Origin: Minisyncoccota bacterium
GTDB taxonomy: Bacteria; Patescibacteriota; Minisyncoccia; Phycocordibacterales; VMEP01
NCBI GenBank assembly: GCA_041661305.1
Contig: JBAZUR010000001.1
Location: 33,591-97,590, forward strand
Direction: 5' to 3'
DNA: 64,000 nt
The translations under genes were made by a program, and so were the position numbers. Below the pieces are notes generated by a model. The model searched no databases. It was not told the DNA's origin and saw only the letters and a program-made list of their open reading frames with translations. Below are positions 3,921 to 56,668 of the stretch, piece by piece; position 1 is the first letter of the stretch; every line of letters starts with the position of its first letter.

Positions 3921-4427
3921 TTGCTTAAAATTATGGAACTAACAAACAAGAAGAATATTATCATCGGTGTAGTTATTGTCGTTGCAGTTGGTTATTATTT
4001 ATTTCAAAGTCAAAAGGTAGTGGCCCCTGTGCAGAACGAAATACAATCAGGTGTTTCAACCAGTACGAATGAAACTGCTGGTAAAACAGGAACAACTAAA
4101 TCGGCTGTGACAAGCACAACAAAAACAGGGACTACCTTACCAGCCATGACAAAAGAGGGATATTATTTGATTAGTTATACGGATAAGGGCTTTGTTCCAA
4201 AAACTCTTGAAATTAAAGCTGGTAAGTCAGTTCGCTTTGTTAATAATGCAAGCAAGGCAATGAGAATTTTTGCTGATGACAAGACAAGCTCTCTTTATGG
4301 TGAAATGAATCAAAGCAAGACCGTTGGTCGTGGAGGAATCTATGATTTTACTTTTGTTTCTGCTGGCACATGGGCTTATCACAATGAGAATAATCCAGTT
4401 GATAAAGGGGTAGTGATCGTAAAATAG
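3921..4427 (+). CDS. Hypothetical membrane-anchored protein (possible cupredoxin-like beta domain)
   Basis: N-terminal TM, Thr/Ser-rich linker and C-terminal beta-rich segment (LEIKAGKSVRFVNN...WAYHNENNP). No clear metal ligand set. Confidence 0.45.
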   Translation: MLKIMELTNKKNIIIGVVIVVAVGYYLFQSQKVVAPVQNEIQSGVSTSTNETAGKTGTTKSAVTSTTKTGTTLPAMTKEGYYLISYTDKGFVPKTLEIKAGKSVRFVNNASKAMRIFADDKTSSLYGEMNQSKTVGRGGIYDFTFVSAGTWAYHNENNPVDKGVVIVK

Positions 4428-22908: not shown

Positions 22909-24402
22909 CTATCCTAAAGCAACCAGTCCATCCTTTAGTACCATCGTGGCTTTACAGTCATCTTCGTTATATTCAAGTATCCTATTTATAACTTTTTCGT
23001 CTTTTGTATTGATATAATCATTAAACCACTGAATAGACAGTGCCCCGGATGGTGTTTCGTCGCGCCAATGAAATCCTAGATATGTAGCGAGCGCTTTGAG
23101 AGAATAGCTACCTACCGGCCAGTCTGTCATCTTAAGTACAACTTGGTATAAATCAATAACATTTGGATTATCAAAAAATTCTTCAACCTCTTTCGCTGAA
23201 ATTACCTCAGGATATTTTTTCTGCATCTTGCTATATGTAGTTTTTTCATGATGAGAATAGTAATACACGGAAAAATCTCCTTTAGGTAATGATTTTACAT
23301 AAGTCCAAAAATCTCCCCACGCTTTTTTCTCCGCGTCCGCTGTTATTTCGTGTGCAGTAAAATGCAAATAGCGTTCTCTTTCCTTTGTTCTCTCGTAAAC
23401 TCCGTGCATATAAACAAACTCTTGAGTGGGGTCATCTTCAATATCAAAAAATAACTCATGAGATACTTCAGGGAAATCTAATTCCCCATAAATAAGAGGT
23501 TTTTTAGATACCTTAAGAATTTGTGCCCTCCTAACAGCTTTCTCAAGAGTGGATTTACCTACCCCTTTAAGAAAGGTTTTGTCTTTCTCTTTCTGTTCCA
23601 GAAGTCCGTCAGTATCAATTTTTAAAAGACTATCAATAGTATTTACACCTGCATCCTCGGCAAGAACATCTCTTACTGAACGACCGACATAAAAGATGTT
23701 AGTTGGGTCATCATTATCTTTTGCCCACTTACTACAACTTAGATACCATGGGCACAACTTACAAATTCCAGACATTGCTGGCTTATTCGTTGCTTTATTT
23801 TCCATCAAAATACCAACATTGTTTTTTATTGATTCATAAAATTCCCACCATGTACGCTTATCTCTTTGCCCCATAGCGTCATTGAGATTGTAGGTGACTT
23901 CCTTTCCCTCAATATCAAGAACCACAGCACAATCATTGTTTTTAAAACCATTCTTTTTTAATACATCAACATATAAAGCTAGCTGTACTGCATAATGTTT
24001 TTTAGGTTTTCCTTCCTCGTCCTCGTCACTATTAGCCCCCTCAAAAGCAAGTCCGGACTTAATGTCTATAGGAACATAAGAACCATCAGGTTCTAAACGA
24101 AGTAGGTCTGGAATACCCAAAAGGTTGTCATAGCACAACACCCCCTGATAAATAAGAGGGATTTTGTCGGAAAGGGCTTTAATGGTTTTTTGAAATCGTT
24201 CATCAAGAGAGCCTTCTGTTAAGTCAAGGTATTCCTCAAGCAAACTAACTCGCTTTTTTTCATAAGCAATTCCTTTAGACCAAAGAAGTTCTACGAAAGG
24301 GTTAGTTTCCTTTATTTTCTCATCTTGTGGGCCGTATTCATCTCGCCAAATACGATGCGGACATTGAATATAGTCGTAAAGTTTGGATGCGGTTATATAC
24401 AT
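22909..24402 (-). CDS. Cas4/RecB-like PD-(D/E)XK Fe-S nuclease with a C-terminal domain of unknown function
   Basis: N-terminal YIQCPHRIW Cys, GIPDLL, IDIKSG (ExK-type), QLALYVDVL (QxxxY) and C-terminal CKLCPWYLSC (Cx2Cx5C), the Cas4/AddB-type 4-Cys cluster. About 270 aa extra C-terminal domain (possibly DUF2779-like; uncertain). Confidence 0.7.
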   Translation of the reverse strand: MYITASKLYDYIQCPHRIWRDEYGPQDEKIKETNPFVELLWSKGIAYEKKRVSLLEEYLDLTEGSLDERFQKTIKALSDKIPLIYQGVLCYDNLLGIPDLLRLEPDGSYVPIDIKSGLAFEGANSDEDEEGKPKKHYAVQLALYVDVLKKNGFKNNDCAVVLDIEGKEVTYNLNDAMGQRDKRTWWEFYESIKNNVGILMENKATNKPAMSGICKLCPWYLSCSKWAKDNDDPTNIFYVGRSVRDVLAEDAGVNTIDSLLKIDTDGLLEQKEKDKTFLKGVGKSTLEKAVRRAQILKVSKKPLIYGELDFPEVSHELFFDIEDDPTQEFVYMHGVYERTKERERYLHFTAHEITADAEKKAWGDFWTYVKSLPKGDFSVYYYSHHEKTTYSKMQKKYPEVISAKEVEEFFDNPNVIDLYQVVLKMTDWPVGSYSLKALATYLGFHWRDETPSGALSIQWFNDYINTKDEKVINRILEYNEDDCKATMVLKDGLVALG

Positions 24403-24463
24403 ACAAGTATCAGAAAACTATACCACTTGCTTTGTTTTATTTATATACCACCTAAAATCACAA

Positions 24464-25306
24464 TTATTGATTGGTTGGTTTAGCTATACCGGAAACAACA
24501 GAATTAACTTTTGAAAATAAATCTGGACTGTTTTCCTTCTCCTTTACATGATTGTCCTTGATATTTTTCATGGGCGAGGAATAAAGATCAGTGACGGCTC
24601 CAAGAATGAAGTCAAGTTTTTGCTGATAAGTAGTGGATTGGTAGTCAGAAAAAATTTCTTCAATTATATTTTTGTATGCTTCAAATGAGCGTGCGATAGC
24701 AGCTTTAAAAGTATATTCTTCAATGAGATTTCGTATCCGACCATATTCTCTACTGGTAAAAACGACAAAATAGACAATAGGGGAAGTCAGGGCAACTTTT
24801 ATTAGAAAGCTAACTTCAAATATAGTTTCTTTTTCTAGAATCTGCCAGACAACTATACCAACGGTGGCAATAATAAGAACGACCACTGCTCCAACTAGCC
24901 ACCAAAACCATTTTATTTTCTCTTTTCCCAACTCGTCCTTAACTCCTTCAAATGTACTCGCAAGCTTCGCATTTGCAGCCACCCCAAGTTGCGCCTGAGT
25001 CTCTTTAATAAACTCTTCTACTTTCTGTTGTAACTCTTTTGTTTTTTCAACTAAGTCGGACACTTCTCCTTCTCGTGTAATAACTTGTTCGTTTAGACTT
25101 TTTACCTCTGTGGTTATGCGGTTTAGTTCTTCGCTCCGTGTTGGCAAATCGTTTAGAAAAGAATCAATGTTAGTTTTTTTAGTTTGAGCGTCATTAATAA
25201 GATTTGGTAAACCCTGTCCTTGTTGAACAAGACTGTTTAAATCACCTAATGCCGTAAGTCGCTGATTTATCTCTGTAAGGACTTGTTGTAATTCTTTTTT
25301 ATTCAC
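24464..25306 (-). CDS. Coiled-coil membrane protein (hypothetical)
   Basis: N-terminal ~130 aa heptad-rich, two TM helices (FWWLVGAVVVLIIATVGIVVW; IKVALTSPIVYFVVF), C-terminal soluble tail. Confidence 0.5.
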   Translation of the reverse strand: MNKKELQQVLTEINQRLTALGDLNSLVQQGQGLPNLINDAQTKKTNIDSFLNDLPTRSEELNRITTEVKSLNEQVITREGEVSDLVEKTKELQQKVEEFIKETQAQLGVAANAKLASTFEGVKDELGKEKIKWFWWLVGAVVVLIIATVGIVVWQILEKETIFEVSFLIKVALTSPIVYFVVFTSREYGRIRNLIEEYTFKAAIARSFEAYKNIIEEIFSDYQSTTYQQKLDFILGAVTDLYSSPMKNIKDNHVKEKENSPDLFSKVNSVVSGIAKPTNQ

Positions 25307-25402
25307 AAATTTTTTTATCTAACTAATAATGTGGATAACTAGTTTTGGACTTTCTAGTTTTGTTCTAGTATAATTGATGGGTAAGAAACAAGTCAAGCCT
25401 AT

Positions 25403-26926
25403 ATGCTCACAAAACGCCAAAAAGAAGTTCTAGACTTCGTAGGAAGTTATTCCCAAAAGAAAGGTTATTCTCCATCGTTTGAAGAAATCAAAAAGCGACT
25501 TAAGCTCGCCTCTGTCTCAACTGTTCATTTCCATATATCAAAACTCAAAGAAGGTGGTTATTTAGGAAAAACAGAAAATAAGGCTCGTGCCATTAGTGTT
25601 GCGTCTAAAGAACCGATGATCAAAATCCCTCTTTTGGGAACTATCGCAGCCGGAGAGCCTATAGAGGCAATTCGTCAAAATGAGTTTATTGCTGTTCCTA
25701 AGAATGTATTACCTAGTACCGGTAATCTTTATGCTTTGAGAGTGATAGGAAATAGTATGATAGATGAAAATATTAAAAACGGAGATATTGTCTTAGTAAA
25801 ACAGCAAGATGTCGCGGAAAATGGAGAAAGGGTTGTTGCTTTAATTGATAATCATGAGGCAACGCTTAAGAAATTTTATAAAGAACGAGGATATATACGA
25901 CTTCAACCGGCAAATAAAACCTTTGAACCGATTATTATAAGAAAAGATCGTGACATTAAAATTCAAGGAGTTGTTATAGATGTTATTAAAAACGAGGAGG
26001 AATTACAGGCGGAGGAAATTACAATAATCAAAGAGACAAAAAAGGAAAGAAAGTTACCCCTTAATAAAATAATTTTAGGAGACGCTATCCAAGAACTAAG
26101 AAAACTCCCTAATGAAAGTTGTGATGTTGTTATAATTGATCCACCCTATAATATCGGTAAAGATTTTGGAAATAATATAGATAAAAGAGAACTTGGAGAA
26201 TATGTGGAGTGGTGTAAAAGTTGGATAGACGAAAGCATAAGAATCATGAAGCCAAATGGGACAATGTTTATTTATGGTTTTAGTGAAATTTTGGCTTACC
26301 TTTCTATTGAAATCCCGATACAAAAACGGTGGTTAATTTGGCATTATACAAATAAAAATGTTGCCTCACTCAATTTTTGGCAACGAAGCCATGAAGCAAT
26401 AATTTGCGCATGGAAAGATAAACCTGTTTTCAATAGGGATGAAGTTAGAGAACCATACACAGACGGCTTCCTAAATGGAGCTGCCGGCAAGGTAAGAAAA
26501 GGAACTCTCGGGAGATTTAGTAGCAGTGGTCTAGAAACTGTCTATAAAGCTCACGCGGGCGGGGCTCTGCCAAGAGATGTAATCAAAATTCCGGCTCTTG
26601 CTGGAGGAGCGGGAATGAACGAAAGATGGTTTTTGTGTAAAACCTGTGACGATGTTTGTGAACCACGACAACTGAAAAATCATGAGGGGCATGAAGTAAT
26701 GAAGCACCCGACACAAAAACCATTTGAGCTATCTAAGAAATTAATAAAATCTGCTATGCCTAAAAAGGACGGAATTGTGTTGGTTCCCTTCGTTGGTACT
26801 GGTTCAGAATGCGCGGCGGCAAAAGAATTAGGTCAATCGTATATTGGCTTTGAAATTAACCCTGACTATGTGAGGTTAGCTGAAAAAATGGTAGGCGATA
26901 AAAAATCGGTTGCCAAATTATTTTAA
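25403..26926 (+). CDS. Full-length LexA repressor fused in-frame to a DNA methyltransferase (beta-class N6A/N4C)
   Basis: Residues 1-200 align over their whole length with LexA: LTKRQKEVLDFV HTH, IAAGEP cleavage site, GNSM Ser and LKKFYK Lys. Residues ~230-507 carry VVIIDPPYN (motif IV), then C-terminal VLVPFVGTGSE (motif I) and a CxxC..H..H insert. Confidence 0.8.
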   Translation: MLTKRQKEVLDFVGSYSQKKGYSPSFEEIKKRLKLASVSTVHFHISKLKEGGYLGKTENKARAISVASKEPMIKIPLLGTIAAGEPIEAIRQNEFIAVPKNVLPSTGNLYALRVIGNSMIDENIKNGDIVLVKQQDVAENGERVVALIDNHEATLKKFYKERGYIRLQPANKTFEPIIIRKDRDIKIQGVVIDVIKNEEELQAEEITIIKETKKERKLPLNKIILGDAIQELRKLPNESCDVVIIDPPYNIGKDFGNNIDKRELGEYVEWCKSWIDESIRIMKPNGTMFIYGFSEILAYLSIEIPIQKRWLIWHYTNKNVASLNFWQRSHEAIICAWKDKPVFNRDEVREPYTDGFLNGAAGKVRKGTLGRFSSSGLETVYKAHAGGALPRDVIKIPALAGGAGMNERWFLCKTCDDVCEPRQLKNHEGHEVMKHPTQKPFELSKKLIKSAMPKKDGIVLVPFVGTGSECAAAKELGQSYIGFEINPDYVRLAEKMVGDKKSVAKLF

Positions 26927-27613
26927 AGCCTCATCCATTTCCTTTTTCTTCTGCTCAAAGGCGTAAGGAGTAAAAACAACGAAACCATTAGGGAATCGTT
27001 TTAATTCTTTGTTATCTTGGAACCTTTTATATGGGAGTTTATATTCGCCGTCCTTTTTCTTTGGGTTTTCAAAATACTCACTACTTGGAACTTCATAATT
27101 AATATCAATGAACTCGCCTTCTATTTTGTTTTTGACTCCTCCCTTACCACGCCTAACCTCGCCACTGAATGATTTCTTTTTAACTTGGTAGTTCAAGATT
27201 TTGCCTCTATATGTAATTTGAAAATCTGCTCCCTGATGGTCAAGCTCGCCTGACATAGAAACTGTGCCTTCGCCAAAAACTGATTCTGCAACATAACCGG
27301 CGTGGATTTGAGTGATTATACTCGCCCATGTTCTATAAATTCTAGCGGGCAATCCTTTATGAAAACATTCTTTACACATCCCAATTTTTTCTTGAAACTT
27401 TTTAATCTCTGCCCCATATTCACTCATATACTCTTTGTAAAATTCATCAAAACTTAGAAATTCTTTCTTCCCCCAGTATATTTTGTAGAGTAGGTTAATA
27501 GCTTGGATTTCTTTTGGTAAATCCATTTCCACGATCTTAACAGGTCTATATTTTTCACGATAGGACTTAAGGTCAACTGATTGTAAAAATTTGTCGAATT
27601 TTTGGACTAGCAT
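26918..27613 (-). CDS. Candidate type II restriction endonuclease (no recognisable family)
   Basis: 231 aa. Convergent with the MTase with a 9-nt 3' overlap. Immediately downstream of and co-oriented with the XRE controller gene. Possible D..(ADFQI)..K core. Confidence 0.4.
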   Translation of the reverse strand: MLVQKFDKFLQSVDLKSYREKYRPVKIVEMDLPKEIQAINLLYKIYWGKKEFLSFDEFYKEYMSEYGAEIKKFQEKIGMCKECFHKGLPARIYRTWASIITQIHAGYVAESVFGEGTVSMSGELDHQGADFQITYRGKILNYQVKKKSFSGEVRRGKGGVKNKIEGEFIDINYEVPSSEYFENPKKKDGEYKLPYKRFQDNKELKRFPNGFVVFTPYAFEQKKKEMDEALK

Positions 27614-27616
27614 AAA

Positions 27617-27835
27617 TTATAGAAAATATGATGACGGTTTTTGGTATATCTCTGCAAATTTTTTCATTTCTGCCACATCAAGCCTTCTTTCACCAGATTC
27701 AATCTTTGAGATAAAAGATTGTGGTTTCCCGAGCTTATCAGCAACATCTTGCTGTGCTAATCCGGCTTCAACACGCGCCTTTTTCAAGCGTCTTATAATC
27801 TCTTTGTAGTCCTTTGAATAAACAGATTTACTCAT
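27617..27835 (-). CDS. XRE-family HTH regulator (C-protein-like controller)
   Basis: MSKSVYSKDYKEIIRRLKKARVEAGLAQQDVADKLGKPQSFISKIESGERRLDV is a canonical HTH_XRE. Start taken at the internal ATG; the longer ORF extends into IR-A. Confidence 0.7.
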   Translation of the reverse strand: MSKSVYSKDYKEIIRRLKKARVEAGLAQQDVADKLGKPQSFISKIESGERRLDVAEMKKFAEIYQKPSSYFL

Positions 27836-27870
27836 GTATTTAGTATGATATATCCTTTTATGGTATAATC

Positions 27871-27897
27871 CCAAAATAGGATTATATAGAGTAGTTT
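27871..27897 (-). promoter_or_regulatory. Candidate C-box/operator palindrome upstream of the controller gene
   Basis: TATAATCC-tattttg-GGATTATA inverted repeat about 35-60 bp upstream of the XRE start. Confidence 0.35.
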
Positions 27898-27905
27898 TAC
27901 CCCTC

Positions 27906-28075
27906 GCCCCATCGCCCATACCTAAATCAAAGAATTTCCCGCCGGACTGATAAAGAATGGAGAGCGATGGGGCGAAGGGCGACCGCGCGTAATCGCGCGG
28001 TGGGCGCCGAGTGAAGCGAGGCGTTACGAGCTCCGCTCGAAAAAGGTTCGTGCAAAGGATAGAATTACATCACAA
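27906..28075. repeat. IR-A right copy (170 bp)
   Basis: Exact reverse complement of 21610-21779. Its outer 6 bp overlap IR-B left. Confidence 0.9.
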
Positions 28076-28206
28076 TTTGATACATCGGCTGGATTAAGAA
28101 AAAAATCGGCGTCCGCCTTCGGCGGAGTAAGTGGAGATAAAACGAAATCTGCCTTGCGGGTGCGGGCGAAATCGGAGGGCGGGCAAAATGAGATTGAGAT
28201 AGTTTT
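28070..28206. repeat. IR-B left copy (137 bp perfect inverted repeat)
   Basis: Exact reverse complement of 29624-29760. Confidence 0.9.
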
Positions 28207-28231
28207 TAAAGATTTTGAATCCAAAAGCGAT

Positions 28232-29818
28232 ATGTCTAAACCAAAATATTTTCTCTATGCTCGCAAGAGTACTGAAGATGACGATAAGCAAGTCATGAGT
28301 ATTGAAGCTCAATTGTTTGAACTTCGTGAGTTTGCGAGCAGAGAAAATCTTGAAATTATTGAGGAATTTCAAGAGTCAAAAAGCGCAAAGAGTCCGGGAC
28401 GAGAAGTGTTCGGCGTAATGATGATGCGTATAGAGAAAATGGGTAATGTTGGTATTCTCGCGTGGCATCCTGACCGCTTGGCGAGAAACAGTATTGATGG
28501 CGGACGCATCATTTACGCCGTAGACACTTCAAAAATCGTCTCTTTGCGTTTTCCGACATTTTGGTTTGAACCCACTCCGCAGGGGCTATTTATGCTTCAA
28601 GTGGCGTTCGGACAGTCCAAATATTATTCCGACAATTTGAAGCAGAATGTTGAACGAGGTATGCGCCAAAAACTGCGACGGGGCGAATGGCTGACACGCG
28701 CTCCCTTCGGGTATGTGAACAATCCTAAAACGCGCAATATTGAGCCGGATGTAGTGAAATCTAAAATTATTGTCCGCGCGTTTGGAGAATATGTAAAAGG
28801 AACACATACTCTAGAGTCGCTGTCGCAGTTTTTGGCTCTGCACGGTGTAGCGCAAAAGTCCGGAACGCCACTTGGCAAAGCTTCCGTGAAAAGAATTTTG
28901 ACTAATCGCGCTTATCTTGGATTCACTTTGCATCGCGGAGAATATTTTCCCGGAAGCTTTGCGCCAATTCTTTCTCCGACATTGTTTGAAGCTGTACAAA
29001 AAAGATTGGAAGAGCGAGCGCGTCCAAGACACAGCAAAATATCCCATAATTTTCCTTTCGTTGGTCTTTTTCGTTGTGGCGAGTGTGGCTCAATGATTAC
29101 CGCCCAATGGGCGACAAACCGGTGGGGTTCAAAGTATAGATATTATCGCTGTACGAAAAAGAAAGGAAAATGTTATCAGGGATATTTGAAAGAAGACGCT
29201 CTCGCTCTCCAAGTTAAGGAACAGCTTCAATCAGTGTCTATACCCCTAGCGTGGGCGGATTATATGCTCAAAAAAGTGGAAGAATTTGAGCATAACGAAA
29301 AACACGCTTCGGGAAATCGTCTCGGGCAGATGAAGGACAATCTGAAAACGCTTGAAGCGAAGTTAGACGCTCTTGTTGATTTGTATCTAAACCAAGACAT
29401 TGAGCGCGAGATATATCTGACGAAAAAGGACGCGCTCATGCGTCAAAAACTTTCGCTTCAAGCCAAATCTTCATCCGCCCGAGCCGTGAGAAAGAATTGG
29501 GTCGAACCCCTGCGGAAATGGATTTTGGATTCAAAACGCTCGGGGTTTCTCGCCACGAGCGAAAATCTCTATGAGATGAGAGATTTTCTTCGTTCCTTCG
29601 GAACGAACCCCTCGCTTAAAGACAAAACTATCTCAATCTCATTTTGCCCGCCCTCCGATTTCGCCCGCACCCGCAAGGCAGATTTCGTTTTATCTCCACT
29701 TACTCCGCCGAAGGCGGACGCCGATTTTTTTCTTAATCCAGCCGATGTATCAAATTGTGACCCTACAGGGAATCGAACCCTGGTTCCAAGCTTGAAAAGC
29801 TTGTGTCCTAACCGTTAG
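28232..29818 (+). CDS. Large serine recombinase (resolvase/invertase catalytic domain, recombinase domain and zinc ribbon)
   Basis: YARKSTEDDDKQVMSIEAQ (catalytic Ser), GILAWHPDRLAR, recombinase-domain segment and CGECGSMI...YRCTKKKGKC zinc ribbon. Start at MSKPKYF. The open frame runs through IR-B right into tRNA-Glu, so the true C-terminus is uncertain. Confidence 0.8.
   Translation: MSKPKYFLYARKSTEDDDKQVMSIEAQLFELREFASRENLEIIEEFQESKSAKSPGREVFGVMMMRIEKMGNVGILAWHPDRLARNSIDGGRIIYAVDTSKIVSLRFPTFWFEPTPQGLFMLQVAFGQSKYYSDNLKQNVERGMRQKLRRGEWLTRAPFGYVNNPKTRNIEPDVVKSKIIVRAFGEYVKGTHTLESLSQFLALHGVAQKSGTPLGKASVKRILTNRAYLGFTLHRGEYFPGSFAPILSPTLFEAVQKRLEERARPRHSKISHNFPFVGLFRCGECGSMITAQWATNRWGSKYRYYRCTKKKGKCYQGYLKEDALALQVKEQLQSVSIPLAWADYMLKKVEEFEHNEKHASGNRLGQMKDNLKTLEAKLDALVDLYLNQDIEREIYLTKKDALMRQKLSLQAKSSSARAVRKNWVEPLRKWILDSKRSGFLATSENLYEMRDFLRSFGTNPSLKDKTISISFCPPSDFARTRKADFVLSPLTPPKADADFFLNPADVSNCDPTGNRTLVPSLKSLCPNR
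29624..29760. repeat. IR-B right copy (137 bp)
   Basis: Reverse complement of 28070-28206. Ends exactly at the 3' end of tRNA-Glu. Confidence 0.9.
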
Positions 29819-29829
29819 ACGATAGGGCC
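29758..29829 (-). tRNA. tRNA-Glu (anticodon TTC)
   Basis: Reverse complement GGCCCTATCGTCTAACGGTTAGGACACAAGCTTTTCAAGCTTGGAACCAGGGTTCGATTCCCTGTAGGGTCA. Confidence 0.8.
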
Positions 29830-55459: not shown

Positions 55460-56668
55460 ATGAAGAAAAGGAGAAAGATATACTTAGATCACGCGGCGAC
55501 AACACCCATAGACCCAAAGGTTGTGACACTTGTTTCAAAATCTATGACGGGGATTTTTGGTAACCCTGGCGCTTTATATGATGACGGGATTTTGGCAAAA
55601 AGATCCTTGGAAAAAGCACGAGGCGATGTGGCTAAAATTTTATCTGTCCTTCCTGATGAAATAATTTTCACGAGTGGTGGTACGGAGAGTGATAATCTGG
55701 CTTTGTTTGGGGTAGTGAGAGCGGCTCAAGAAAAATTCCCAAAAAAGAAACTACACATTATTGTGTCCTCGATTGAACACTCTGCCGTCCTTGAGGTTGC
55801 TCTCGAACTTGAGAAGGATGGTGTTTCTGTTAGTTATATTGCGCCAGATAAAGATGGCATTGTTTCTCCAAAAGCTATTAATGGAGCTTTACAAGAAAAC
55901 ACGGTGTTTGTTTCGGTGATGTACGCAAATAATGAAATTGGAACAATAGAGCCAATTCGCGAGATAGCAAAAACTATTAGGCACTATAAAAAAAATAACA
56001 AGACGATTCTTGGTCAGTATCCTGTTTTTCATACTGACGCATCACAGGCCACTTCGTATCTTCCACTTCGTGTACCACCACTTGGCGTTGATATGATGAC
56101 GTTGTCGAGTCAGAAGATTTACGGTCCGCGTGGTATAGGTGCTTTGTATATAAATAGGGGGGTTTTGGTTAAGCCGATTCTTTTTGGTGGCGAGCAAGAG
56201 CGTGGAATTCGTCCAGGAACAGAAAATGTGGCTCTTATTTTAGGGTTTGCAGAAGCACTTCGTATTACAGAACAAAAGAAGGACAGCGAGGTAAAGAGAC
56301 TCATAGTCCTGAGGGATTATTTTATTAAGCGATTATTAAAGGATGTGCCAGGGGCTGTTTTAAATGGACACGCAAAAGAGCGATTGCCAAATAACGTTAA
56401 TATTTCGATTAGTGGTGTGGATAACGATTTTTTGGTGATTAGTTTAGCAGAGCAGGGCATACTGTGCTCTACTAGAAGTGCCTGTAAGACAAATGATGAG
56501 AAAGGCTCACATGTTATACTTGCATTAGGAGGCGATAAAAACTTAGCAAGAGAAAGTTTACGTTTTTCACTAGGGCGCGATACCACAAAAGACAAATTAG
56601 ACACAACTGTCTTGGAGCTTGTGCGCATTGTTAAAGAAATTAAAAAATTTGGAAAAAATATTAATTAA
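55460..56668 (+). CDS. Cysteine desulfurase (NifS/IscS family, class V aminotransferase)
   Basis: LDHAATTP, SSIEHSAV and SSQKIYGPRGIGALY (PLP-Lys). Confidence 0.85.
   Translation: MKKRRKIYLDHAATTPIDPKVVTLVSKSMTGIFGNPGALYDDGILAKRSLEKARGDVAKILSVLPDEIIFTSGGTESDNLALFGVVRAAQEKFPKKKLHIIVSSIEHSAVLEVALELEKDGVSVSYIAPDKDGIVSPKAINGALQENTVFVSVMYANNEIGTIEPIREIAKTIRHYKKNNKTILGQYPVFHTDASQATSYLPLRVPPLGVDMMTLSSQKIYGPRGIGALYINRGVLVKPILFGGEQERGIRPGTENVALILGFAEALRITEQKKDSEVKRLIVLRDYFIKRLLKDVPGAVLNGHAKERLPNNVNISISGVDNDFLVISLAEQGILCSTRSACKTNDEKGSHVILALGGDKNLARESLRFSLGRDTTKDKLDTTVLELVRIVKEIKKFGKNIN

Follow-up and report, generated by a model that had tools for sequence, protein, structure and literature searches.

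The 64-kb window analysed here (the whole stretch of 64,000 nucleotides taken from contig JBAZUR010000001.1 of assembly GCA_041661305.1, a Minisyncoccota bacterium) carries a compact restriction-modification (R-M) locus of three genes: C, a small controller; R, a restriction endonuclease (REase); and M, a DNA methyltransferase (MTase) joined to a LexA repressor. An original prediction had proposed a controller-restriction operon convergent with a LexA-MTase gene, that is, a controlled type II R-M system, and this is the arrangement that we find, with R a bona fide member of an REase family. The open reading frame (ORF) map and a check of the sequence uphold the proposed coordinates of C and R, the overlap with the MTase gene and the palindrome upstream of C; the 3-nt gap between C and R (27614-27616), the 231-amino-acid (aa) R frame, and the end of R 9 nt inside the 3' end of the MTase gene are exact as claimed. 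For the size of the controller the coordinates 27617-27835 stand, while the product is 72 aa, the 73 codons including the stop. A terminator scan of the interval between R and M found no intrinsic terminator there. The genes are laid out as follows, with positions counted from the first letter of the window:

25403-26926, plus strand: M gene, 507 aa, LexA plus a beta-class N6_N4 MTase, from Pfam and NCBIfam profiles
26918-26926, no strand: 9-nt overlap of the 3' ends of the convergent genes R and M, from the ORF coordinates
26918-27613, minus strand: R gene, 231 aa, a TaqI-family type IIP REase, probably of the PD-(D/E)XK class, starting 3 nt past the C stop
27617-27835, minus strand: C gene, a 72-aa controller of the HTH_3 (XRE-type helix-turn-helix) family, Pfam HTH_3 E = 9.2e-15

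We read the 2.6-kb segment 25330-27886 as a self-contained, horizontally mobile type IIP R-M module of a bacterium of the candidate phyla radiation (CPR; Candidatus Paceibacterota), controlled by C and with a LexA-regulated M, and we would give this reading a probability of roughly 0.85. The R-M core is ordinary: with C and R in one operon, M facing them and a C-box, it follows the textbook organization of type II systems; the regulatory chassis built around the LexA-methylase appears to be a previously undescribed variant of known R-M control.

The 231-aa frame had been described as having no recognisable family and, if a restriction enzyme, as novel by sequence. Neither statement survives: R matches the Pfam profile PF09573 (RE_TaqI) with E = 4.7e-36 and 124.8 bits (cut-off 26.1) over profile positions 2-218 of 229, it matches the PADLOC model REase_II with E = 1.8e-34, and an identical protein in GenBank (MFA6077460.1, from a Candidatus Paceibacterota metagenome-assembled genome, on a 476-kb contig) is already named 'TaqI family restriction endonuclease'. 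Judged by its sequence, R is no new nuclease family. With the named Thermus enzyme R.TspTok6A1I (AAC45743.1) R shares 31% identity over 227 aa (E = 9e-29), almost its whole length. The TaqI family has few members, 169 clusters at 50% identity in a set of 1.84 billion representatives, and the CPR clade forms a deep branch of its own within it. No NCBIfam model matches R, and a sequence search of the PDB with R gave no meaningful match because a TaqI-family structure has not been deposited.

Residue conservation was read from an alignment of 39 diverse family members, which also served as input to AlphaFold2. E29, A90, R91, R94 and Y173 are invariant in it, and D125, D130, T101, Q102 and N209-G210-F211 are nearly so. 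The model is confident, with a predicted local distance difference test score (pLDDT) of 95 and a predicted template modelling score (pTM) of 0.91. In this model D130 opens the strand 131-135 and Q143-V-K145-K146 lies within the strand 138-146, which is where a PD-(D/E)XK site would be expected, so that these are the candidate catalytic residues. The structure prediction did not return a non-nuclease fold: in a Foldseek search of the PDB none of the matches reached significance (best E = 0.33), and the list is headed, weakly, by the PD-(D/E)XK nucleases Hjc, RecU, AvaII and HincII. We therefore assign the fold from the placement of the motif and from the family literature, in which TaqI is put in the PD-(D/E)XK superfamily on mutagenesis evidence (Orlowski and Bujnicki, PMC2441816, Table 1).

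The controller resembles verified C proteins modestly. In a sequence search of the PDB it retrieved C.BclI (1.4e-6), C.Esp1396I (2.7e-3) and C.AhdI (4.2e-3), and it matches the PADLOC model Control_protein at 4.6e-5. A metagenome scan with C found 80 further loci at 78-100% identity. A TaqI-family gene follows C in 19 of 76 metagenomic loci, and the remaining loci carry in its place about 20 mutually unrelated ORF families, which start 0-20 nt past the C stop. Apart from TaqI, Pfam names among the families behind C HindVP, Alw26I/Eco31I/Esp3I, BglII, MvaI/BcnI and EcoRV, two kinds of HNH protein, an Endonuclease-VII/His-Me type found at 22 loci and a protein like MrcB_N; the C in front of TaqI and of these families, the MrcB_N-like one aside, has 78-92% identity. 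The gene is co-oriented with, and directly upstream of, at least eight Pfam-recognisable REase families, always with an MTase partner. That one almost unchanging regulator, with an operator that does not vary, should precede many different REases is the defining behaviour of an R-M controller, and the presence of one C gene before so many unrelated REase families further bears out the proposed layout. In silico, the profile, homology, gene-position and operator features agree with membership of R in the TaqI family and of C in the C-protein class.

About nine of the ORF families behind C have no Pfam match (loci L052, L065, L072, L073, L074, L080, L085, L100 and L113), and such families, standing behind both C and the C-box, are candidates for restriction endonucleases of new kinds. 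Loci L001, L002, L003 and L007 have the same TaqI-family R with a C of a second subfamily (54-58% identity to the first); the conserved block upstream of this C, TATATGGCAATTTGGAATATAACACAATGGAATAATATAAT, is a different one and holds two direct copies of TGGAATA 15 nt apart and no clean palindrome. At locus L006 a C of the first subfamily is paired with the M variant that typifies second-subfamily loci, which marks the modules as mosaic.

Upstream of C lies the C-box, together with a predicted promoter for the C-R operon:

27864-27886, minus strand: predicted distal operator OL, the perfect palindrome TATAATCC-N7-GGATTATA with core ATCC-N7-GGAT
27848-27871, minus strand: predicted weaker proximal operator OR, GGATTATACC-ATAAAA-GGATATAT, overlapping the right arm of OL
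27849-27855, minus strand: third half-site GGATATA, invariant across loci, 16 nt past the first GGAT
27845-27874, minus strand: predicted C/R promoter, from a consensus scan, with weak -35 and -10 elements (9/12)
27874-27869, minus strand: C/R -35 TTGGGA, inside the distal operator, with an 18-nt spacer to the -10
27850-27845, minus strand: C/R -10 TATCAT, ending 9 nt short of the ATG; no Shine-Dalgarno sequence present

The C start codon and the near edge of the palindrome are 28 nt apart. A C-box had been suggested at this place, and the palindrome is both exact at 27864-27886 and footprinted by comparison: aligned with the window, nine C homologues in genome contigs carry the block upstream, equally far from the ATG, and it is present in all 78 of the metagenomic C loci that have enough upstream sequence. 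The conserved block extends from the left arm of the palindrome to about 13 nt before the ATG, and further upstream the sequences are unrelated. Because the palindrome is conserved in sequence and in register while its flanks diverge, we regard it as real. The consensus of the 50 distinct versions found at the 78 loci reads wwwATCC-yrw-TTTGGGATTAT-wCyry-AAtA-GGATATA-tn-AT, in which ATCC, TTTGGGATTAT and GGATATA are essentially invariant over all 50; the spacing to the ATG, 40 nt from TTGGG, is fixed in 70 of the 78. At locus L017 both arms have changed symmetrically, to ATAACC/GGTTAT.

From its sequence, the palindrome, in which AT-rich extensions flank the ATCC-N7-GGAT core, would be the strong distal half of an operator region of about 38 bp. 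Such a design agrees with what has been described for C-protein sites, namely a 5' operator near the consensus, a weaker 3' operator, a short distance to the start codon and leaderless mRNA (Sorokin et al., PMC2632904). With only 9 nt from the -10 to the ATG and no Shine-Dalgarno sequence, the C/R mRNA is likewise predicted to be leaderless or nearly so. The core ATCC-N7-GGAT occurs once in the 64 kb. We considered a C-box at the M promoter, as in Esp1396I, and rejected it, there being no other copy in the window.

M matches the Pfam profiles LexA_DNA_bind (2.1e-15), Peptidase_S24 (3.4e-31) and N6_N4_Mtase (PF01555; 1.7e-37). Residues 1 to ~200 make up a complete LexA, with a winged-helix DNA-binding domain and an S24 autopeptidase; this part scores 187.7 bits against TIGR00498 lexA, for which the equivalog cut-off is 110.95, and the first 200 residues align over their full length with solved LexA structures (3k2z, 2e-35). 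In the window protein AAGEP stands at 82, GNSM at 116 and TLKK at 154, and in the MTase part DPPY at 246 precedes FVGTG at 463, the order of the beta class. The fusion is a single ORF of 499-509 aa in 26 of the 26 sequences checked (25 loci and the window), so it is not an assembly artefact. The cleavage site AAG(E/Q)P and the motifs GxSM, TLKK, DPPY and FxGxG are kept in nearly all 26, the exceptions being one locus without the cleavage-site pattern and another without the TLKK pattern. The nearest relatives of M in NCBIfam and the PDB are adenine MTases (YhdJ-type PRK11524, M.MboIIA, M.RsrI and CcrM), and these relatives and the DPPY motif together indicate that M is probably an N6-adenine enzyme.

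GenBank labels the LexA-fused methylases simply 'transcriptional repressor LexA', so that the annotation hides the fusion. The convergent partner at C-homologue loci is usually also a LexA fusion, with LexA halves 43-79% identical to that of the window; LexA is fused to at least seven different MTase families (472-621 aa; DPPY, DPPF or SPPY), which track the REase family. At five loci (L075, L095, L097, L100 and L102) a stand-alone LexA of 198-221 aa, 33-43% identical to the fused LexA, was seen in place of the LexA-MTase, and no MTase was located there. At locus L023 (~4062-4264; 2351-2920) the MTase part is interrupted, the tblastn match falling into two pieces and a neighbouring ORF having a stretch of X; the cause is probably masking or N-filling of the sequence and not biology.

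The region upstream of M contains a second set of regulatory features:

25330-25374, plus strand: M promoter region, from a promoter scan, with 10/12 consensus matches
25330-25339, plus strand: upstream TGTGGATAAC box, invariant upstream of LexA-MTase genes
25346-25351, plus strand: M -35 TGGACT, from the promoter scan
25352-25367, plus strand: direct repeat TTCTAG-N5-TTCTAG, a candidate LexA operator, filling the spacer between -35 and -10
25369-25374, plus strand: M -10 TATAAT, near-consensus, from the promoter scan

The exact TTCTAG-N5-TTCTAG repeat is unique in the window. Common to the upstream region of every LexA or LexA-MTase gene are the box, the -35, a direct repeat with a period of ~11 in the spacer, and a near-consensus -10. 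The repeat itself varies with the LexA variant: it is TTCTA in the window, TTCGGTA with the more diverged fusions, and TTTAGGT with the stand-alone LexAs, whose promoters (L075, L095, L097, L100 and L102) have TTTAGGT-N4-TTTAGGT in the spacer. The box, (T/G)G(T/G)GGATAAC, stays constant across LexA variants just upstream of the -35 (L001-L031, L054-L112 and the window); we take it to equal the DnaA-box consensus (reverse complement TTATCCACA). A second copy of the box was seen in the window at 56416. Since the repeat co-varies with the LexA variant, the LexA part is likely an autoregulator of the M promoter; this co-variation of operator and DNA-binding domain points to LexA acting on its own promoter. 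Repression of M by its own N-terminal helix-turn-helix domain is well known from other R-M systems (PMC3874152). An SOS regulon was not identified, and the sole exact candidate LexA operator in the 64 kb is that at the promoter of M itself.

How widely the module occurs was assessed by a genome scan with R, which found 33 CPR loci. R and the LexA-MTase are convergent, with their ends touching or overlapping, in nearly all loci that are long enough (~25 genomes), and the conservation of this pair is a further point in favour of the proposed layout. C is present at only about half of the TaqI-family modules, and R is intact without it at loci such as L004, L009, L011 and L018-L021; C is therefore accessory, and R and LexA-M are the obligatory pair. 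At several loci without C, a tRNA gene on the strand of R ends 21-43 nt before R starts, which suggests that the modules integrate at tRNA 3' ends and that R is perhaps expressed by tRNA read-through. Examples of modules next to tRNA genes that lie on the C/R strand are L009 (3886-4001), L011 (3891-4001) and L028 (3887-4001), and further ones were seen at L018, L019 and L020 and at L013, L022 and L030. Locus L004 retains only a CACCGCCA remnant.

Several observations weigh against the reading of the locus as a C-controlled, LexA-regulated TaqI-type module. The model of R lacks a significant Foldseek match and C is absent from half of the modules, as noted above; the upstream inverted partner of the GGATATA half-site is degenerate; and the activator-then-repressor logic of C is assumed by analogy with known C proteins. 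LexA normally acts as a dimer on palindromes, which makes a direct-repeat operator unusual. Neither recA nor a second lexA was found in the window; for recA this absence counts on the same side, and as the window covers 64 kb of a 476-kb contig it is uninformative. To these come the points on specificity taken up below.

Two regulatory elements, the palindrome and the protein encoded behind it, each admit another explanation. The palindrome by itself is marginal: shuffling the upstream 100 nt yields a perfect 8-bp inverted repeat with a 3-12-nt spacer in 1.8% of cases, and among all 100-nt stretches of the sequence, which is AT-rich, 6.3% contain one. In principle it could have arisen by chance, or could form an RNA hairpin or a terminator belonging to the upstream region, and the TATAAT-like sequence in its arms could be promoter-related. 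Against this, the block is found in register at 87 independent loci with diverged flanks, which effectively refutes the notion of chance; and the hairpin or terminator was rejected, because the RNA fold is unremarkable (z = -1.4), the minimum-energy fold skips the palindrome, and there is no T-run terminator. We therefore hold both explanations to be very improbable. It is somewhat easier to imagine that the small helix-turn-helix protein is no activator but simply represses its own gene, is an XRE protein of the antitoxin kind, or works as a Kpn2I-like roadblock, with the palindrome a repressor site or part of a promoter. The uncharacterised XRE proteins 3eus and 3f6w score ahead of C.BclI in the PDB sequence search, antitoxin and phage-repressor families lead the NCBIfam matches, below threshold, an operator lying across the predicted -35 would suit repression too, modules without C exist, and non-canonical C mechanisms are known, as in Kpn2I (PMC6237814). 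We nevertheless think this unlikely, given the position of C in front of at least eight REase families, always with an MTase partner, the two unequal operators at a fixed distance from an ATG without a Shine-Dalgarno sequence, as in the C.PvuII type, and the weak -10 and -35 (9/12), which fit an activator-dependent promoter.

The same weighing applies to the target site. TaqI recognises TCGA (PMC5587805), the Pfam text for PF09573 refers solely to TaqI, and by family membership TCGA is also the most likely site of R, an assignment that we would rate as somewhat better than even. M would then protect that site, and a DPPY-type adenine MTase would yield N6-methyladenine (m6A) within TCGA. TCGA, at an observed/expected ratio of 0.58, is depleted more than any other palindromic 4-mer in 108 kb of host DNA on the flanks of these modules, and the module itself has one TCGA in 2.4 kb. 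Set against these are ACGT (0.60) and GGCC (0.65), which come close to TCGA in the same pooled flanks, so that its avoidance is hardly distinct from theirs, and the weak depletion in the 64-kb window, where TCGA (0.73) ranks third after GATC (0.45) and ACGT (0.71). As a test of specificity, avoidance of TCGA is suggestive and not decisive. Moreover, to judge from the sequences, 31% identity to a TaqI-like Thermus enzyme leaves the recognition sequence unfixed, and M is of the beta class whereas M.TaqI is of the gamma class (PMC4081073). These points, and the deep branch that the CPR clade forms in so small a family, would be accommodated by a genuine C-controlled R-M system whose R has a TaqI fold, a diverged specificity and a beta-class MTase of different origin. 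We regard a site other than TCGA as a possibility, less probable than TCGA itself and to be taken more seriously than a C that does not activate. As a separate observation, GATC is the most under-represented palindromic tetramer of the window, below TCGA, which may reflect restriction directed at GATC in this genome, now or in the past.

Taking the locus as a C-controlled module, we propose the following circuit. C would be made at first from a weak promoter, probably on a leaderless mRNA. Its dimers would fill the strong distal palindrome first (centre ~-38, overlapping the -35) and so activate transcription of C and R, and with more C the weaker proximal site (centre ~-22, between -35 and -10) would be filled as well, shutting transcription off. 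R, which begins 3 nt past the C stop, would be made only after C has accumulated, a delay that would let the methylase act first. On the other side of the module, the LexA part may bind the period-11 direct repeat in the spacer of the M promoter and autorepress M to a set level. With both the cleavage site and the Ser/Lys dyad of LexA intact, RecA-triggered self-cleavage is possible; RecA filaments formed upon DNA damage, including self-restriction, could trigger it and boost the synthesis of M.

More tentatively, the same parts may form a chassis used across the CPR, in which a portable C and C-box are combined with a self-cleavable LexA fused to any MTase, the LexA-MTase serving as a DNA-damage-sensing antidote. 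Double-strand breaks caused by under-methylation or by phage would lead through RecA to LexA self-cleavage and derepression of M, whereupon methylation would catch up. The invariant TGTGGATAAC box by the -35 may further tie the expression of M to replication. We think it doubtful that the whole of this wider scheme holds. If it does, a feedback loop of the SOS type is built into a mobile R-M module.

The genes next to the module were considered as possible parts of it and rejected, since none of them (the 280-aa coiled-coil/transmembrane protein, the TM0106 nuclease, the serine recombinase and a 189-aa ORF) recurs at the other loci. On the M side, 22909-25306 holds a TM0106-family RecB-like nuclease (RNase_H_2 plus PDDEXK_1/Cas4-like, 497 aa) and the family-less 280-aa coiled-coil membrane protein. 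On the other side, a perfect 137-nt inverted repeat (28070-28206 and 29624-29760) flanks the gene of a large serine recombinase (ORF 28154-29818; Resolvase, Recombinase and Zn_ribbon_recom). The right arm of the repeat is flush with the 3' end of a tRNA-Glu gene (29757-29829, minus strand), and the 1.7-kb recombinase unit stands between tRNA-Glu and the C-box. This unit could be an invertible element, a mobile element or an assembly artefact.

What the locus adds to the knowledge of R-M systems lies in its regulation. The C-box motif appears to be new and is well footprinted, and a controller is reused almost unchanged before about 20 ORF families in CPR bacteria. Full-text literature searches found no description of this C-box, and likewise no paper on a LexA-MTase fusion or on R-M regulation in the CPR. 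The roughly nine Pfam-less families behind C offer a cheap route to new restriction enzymes. The recurrence of the LexA fusion across MTase classes points, so far as sequence can tell, to autoregulation of the antidote, and makes coupling to DNA damage possible. CPR bacteria are, to our knowledge, largely without CRISPR; if so, the regulation and exchange of R-M modules bears on their defence against phages and on attempts at their genetic transformation.

Among known systems, those of the TaqI/TthHB8I type from Thermus (R.TaqI, 263 aa, T^CGA; M.TaqI) share the REase family PF09573 and are likewise small and of type IIP. Their genes are presumably co-oriented and without a C gene, whereas here a C protein and convergent genes are found in a mesophilic CPR host. 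The MTase differs as well, being of the beta class with DPPY and an N-terminal LexA, as against the gamma-class NPPY enzyme M.TaqI (PMC4081073). In having a small HTH_3 protein immediately upstream of R in one operon, the module resembles PvuII, AhdI, Esp1396I, BclI and Csp231I, and AhdI and Esp1396I share with it the convergent CR and M units. C-controlled systems also have the double operator predicted here, strong at the distal site and weak at the proximal site near the ATG; in the operator of the module, ATCC-N7-GGAT...GGATATA, neither the central GTG nor the flanking (A)TG/CA(T) of C.PvuII-like motifs (PMC2632904) is present. A second regulator, fused to M, is added to what these systems have. 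In this respect the module resembles the MTases of the SsoII/Ecl18kI, EcoRII and MspI type, which also carry an N-terminal DNA-binding domain and repress their own gene, and here too a candidate operator overlaps the M promoter (for the principle see PMC3874152); unlike them, it has a complete LexA with a self-cleaving S24 domain in place of a short helix-turn-helix, and a direct-repeat operator of period 11. With the LexA repressor of the SOS response, residues 1-200 of M share the equivalog-level score, the end-to-end alignment, the Ala-Gly cleavage site and the Ser/Lys dyad, but here this repressor is covalently linked to a DNA methyltransferase and is carried along by a mobile R-M module.

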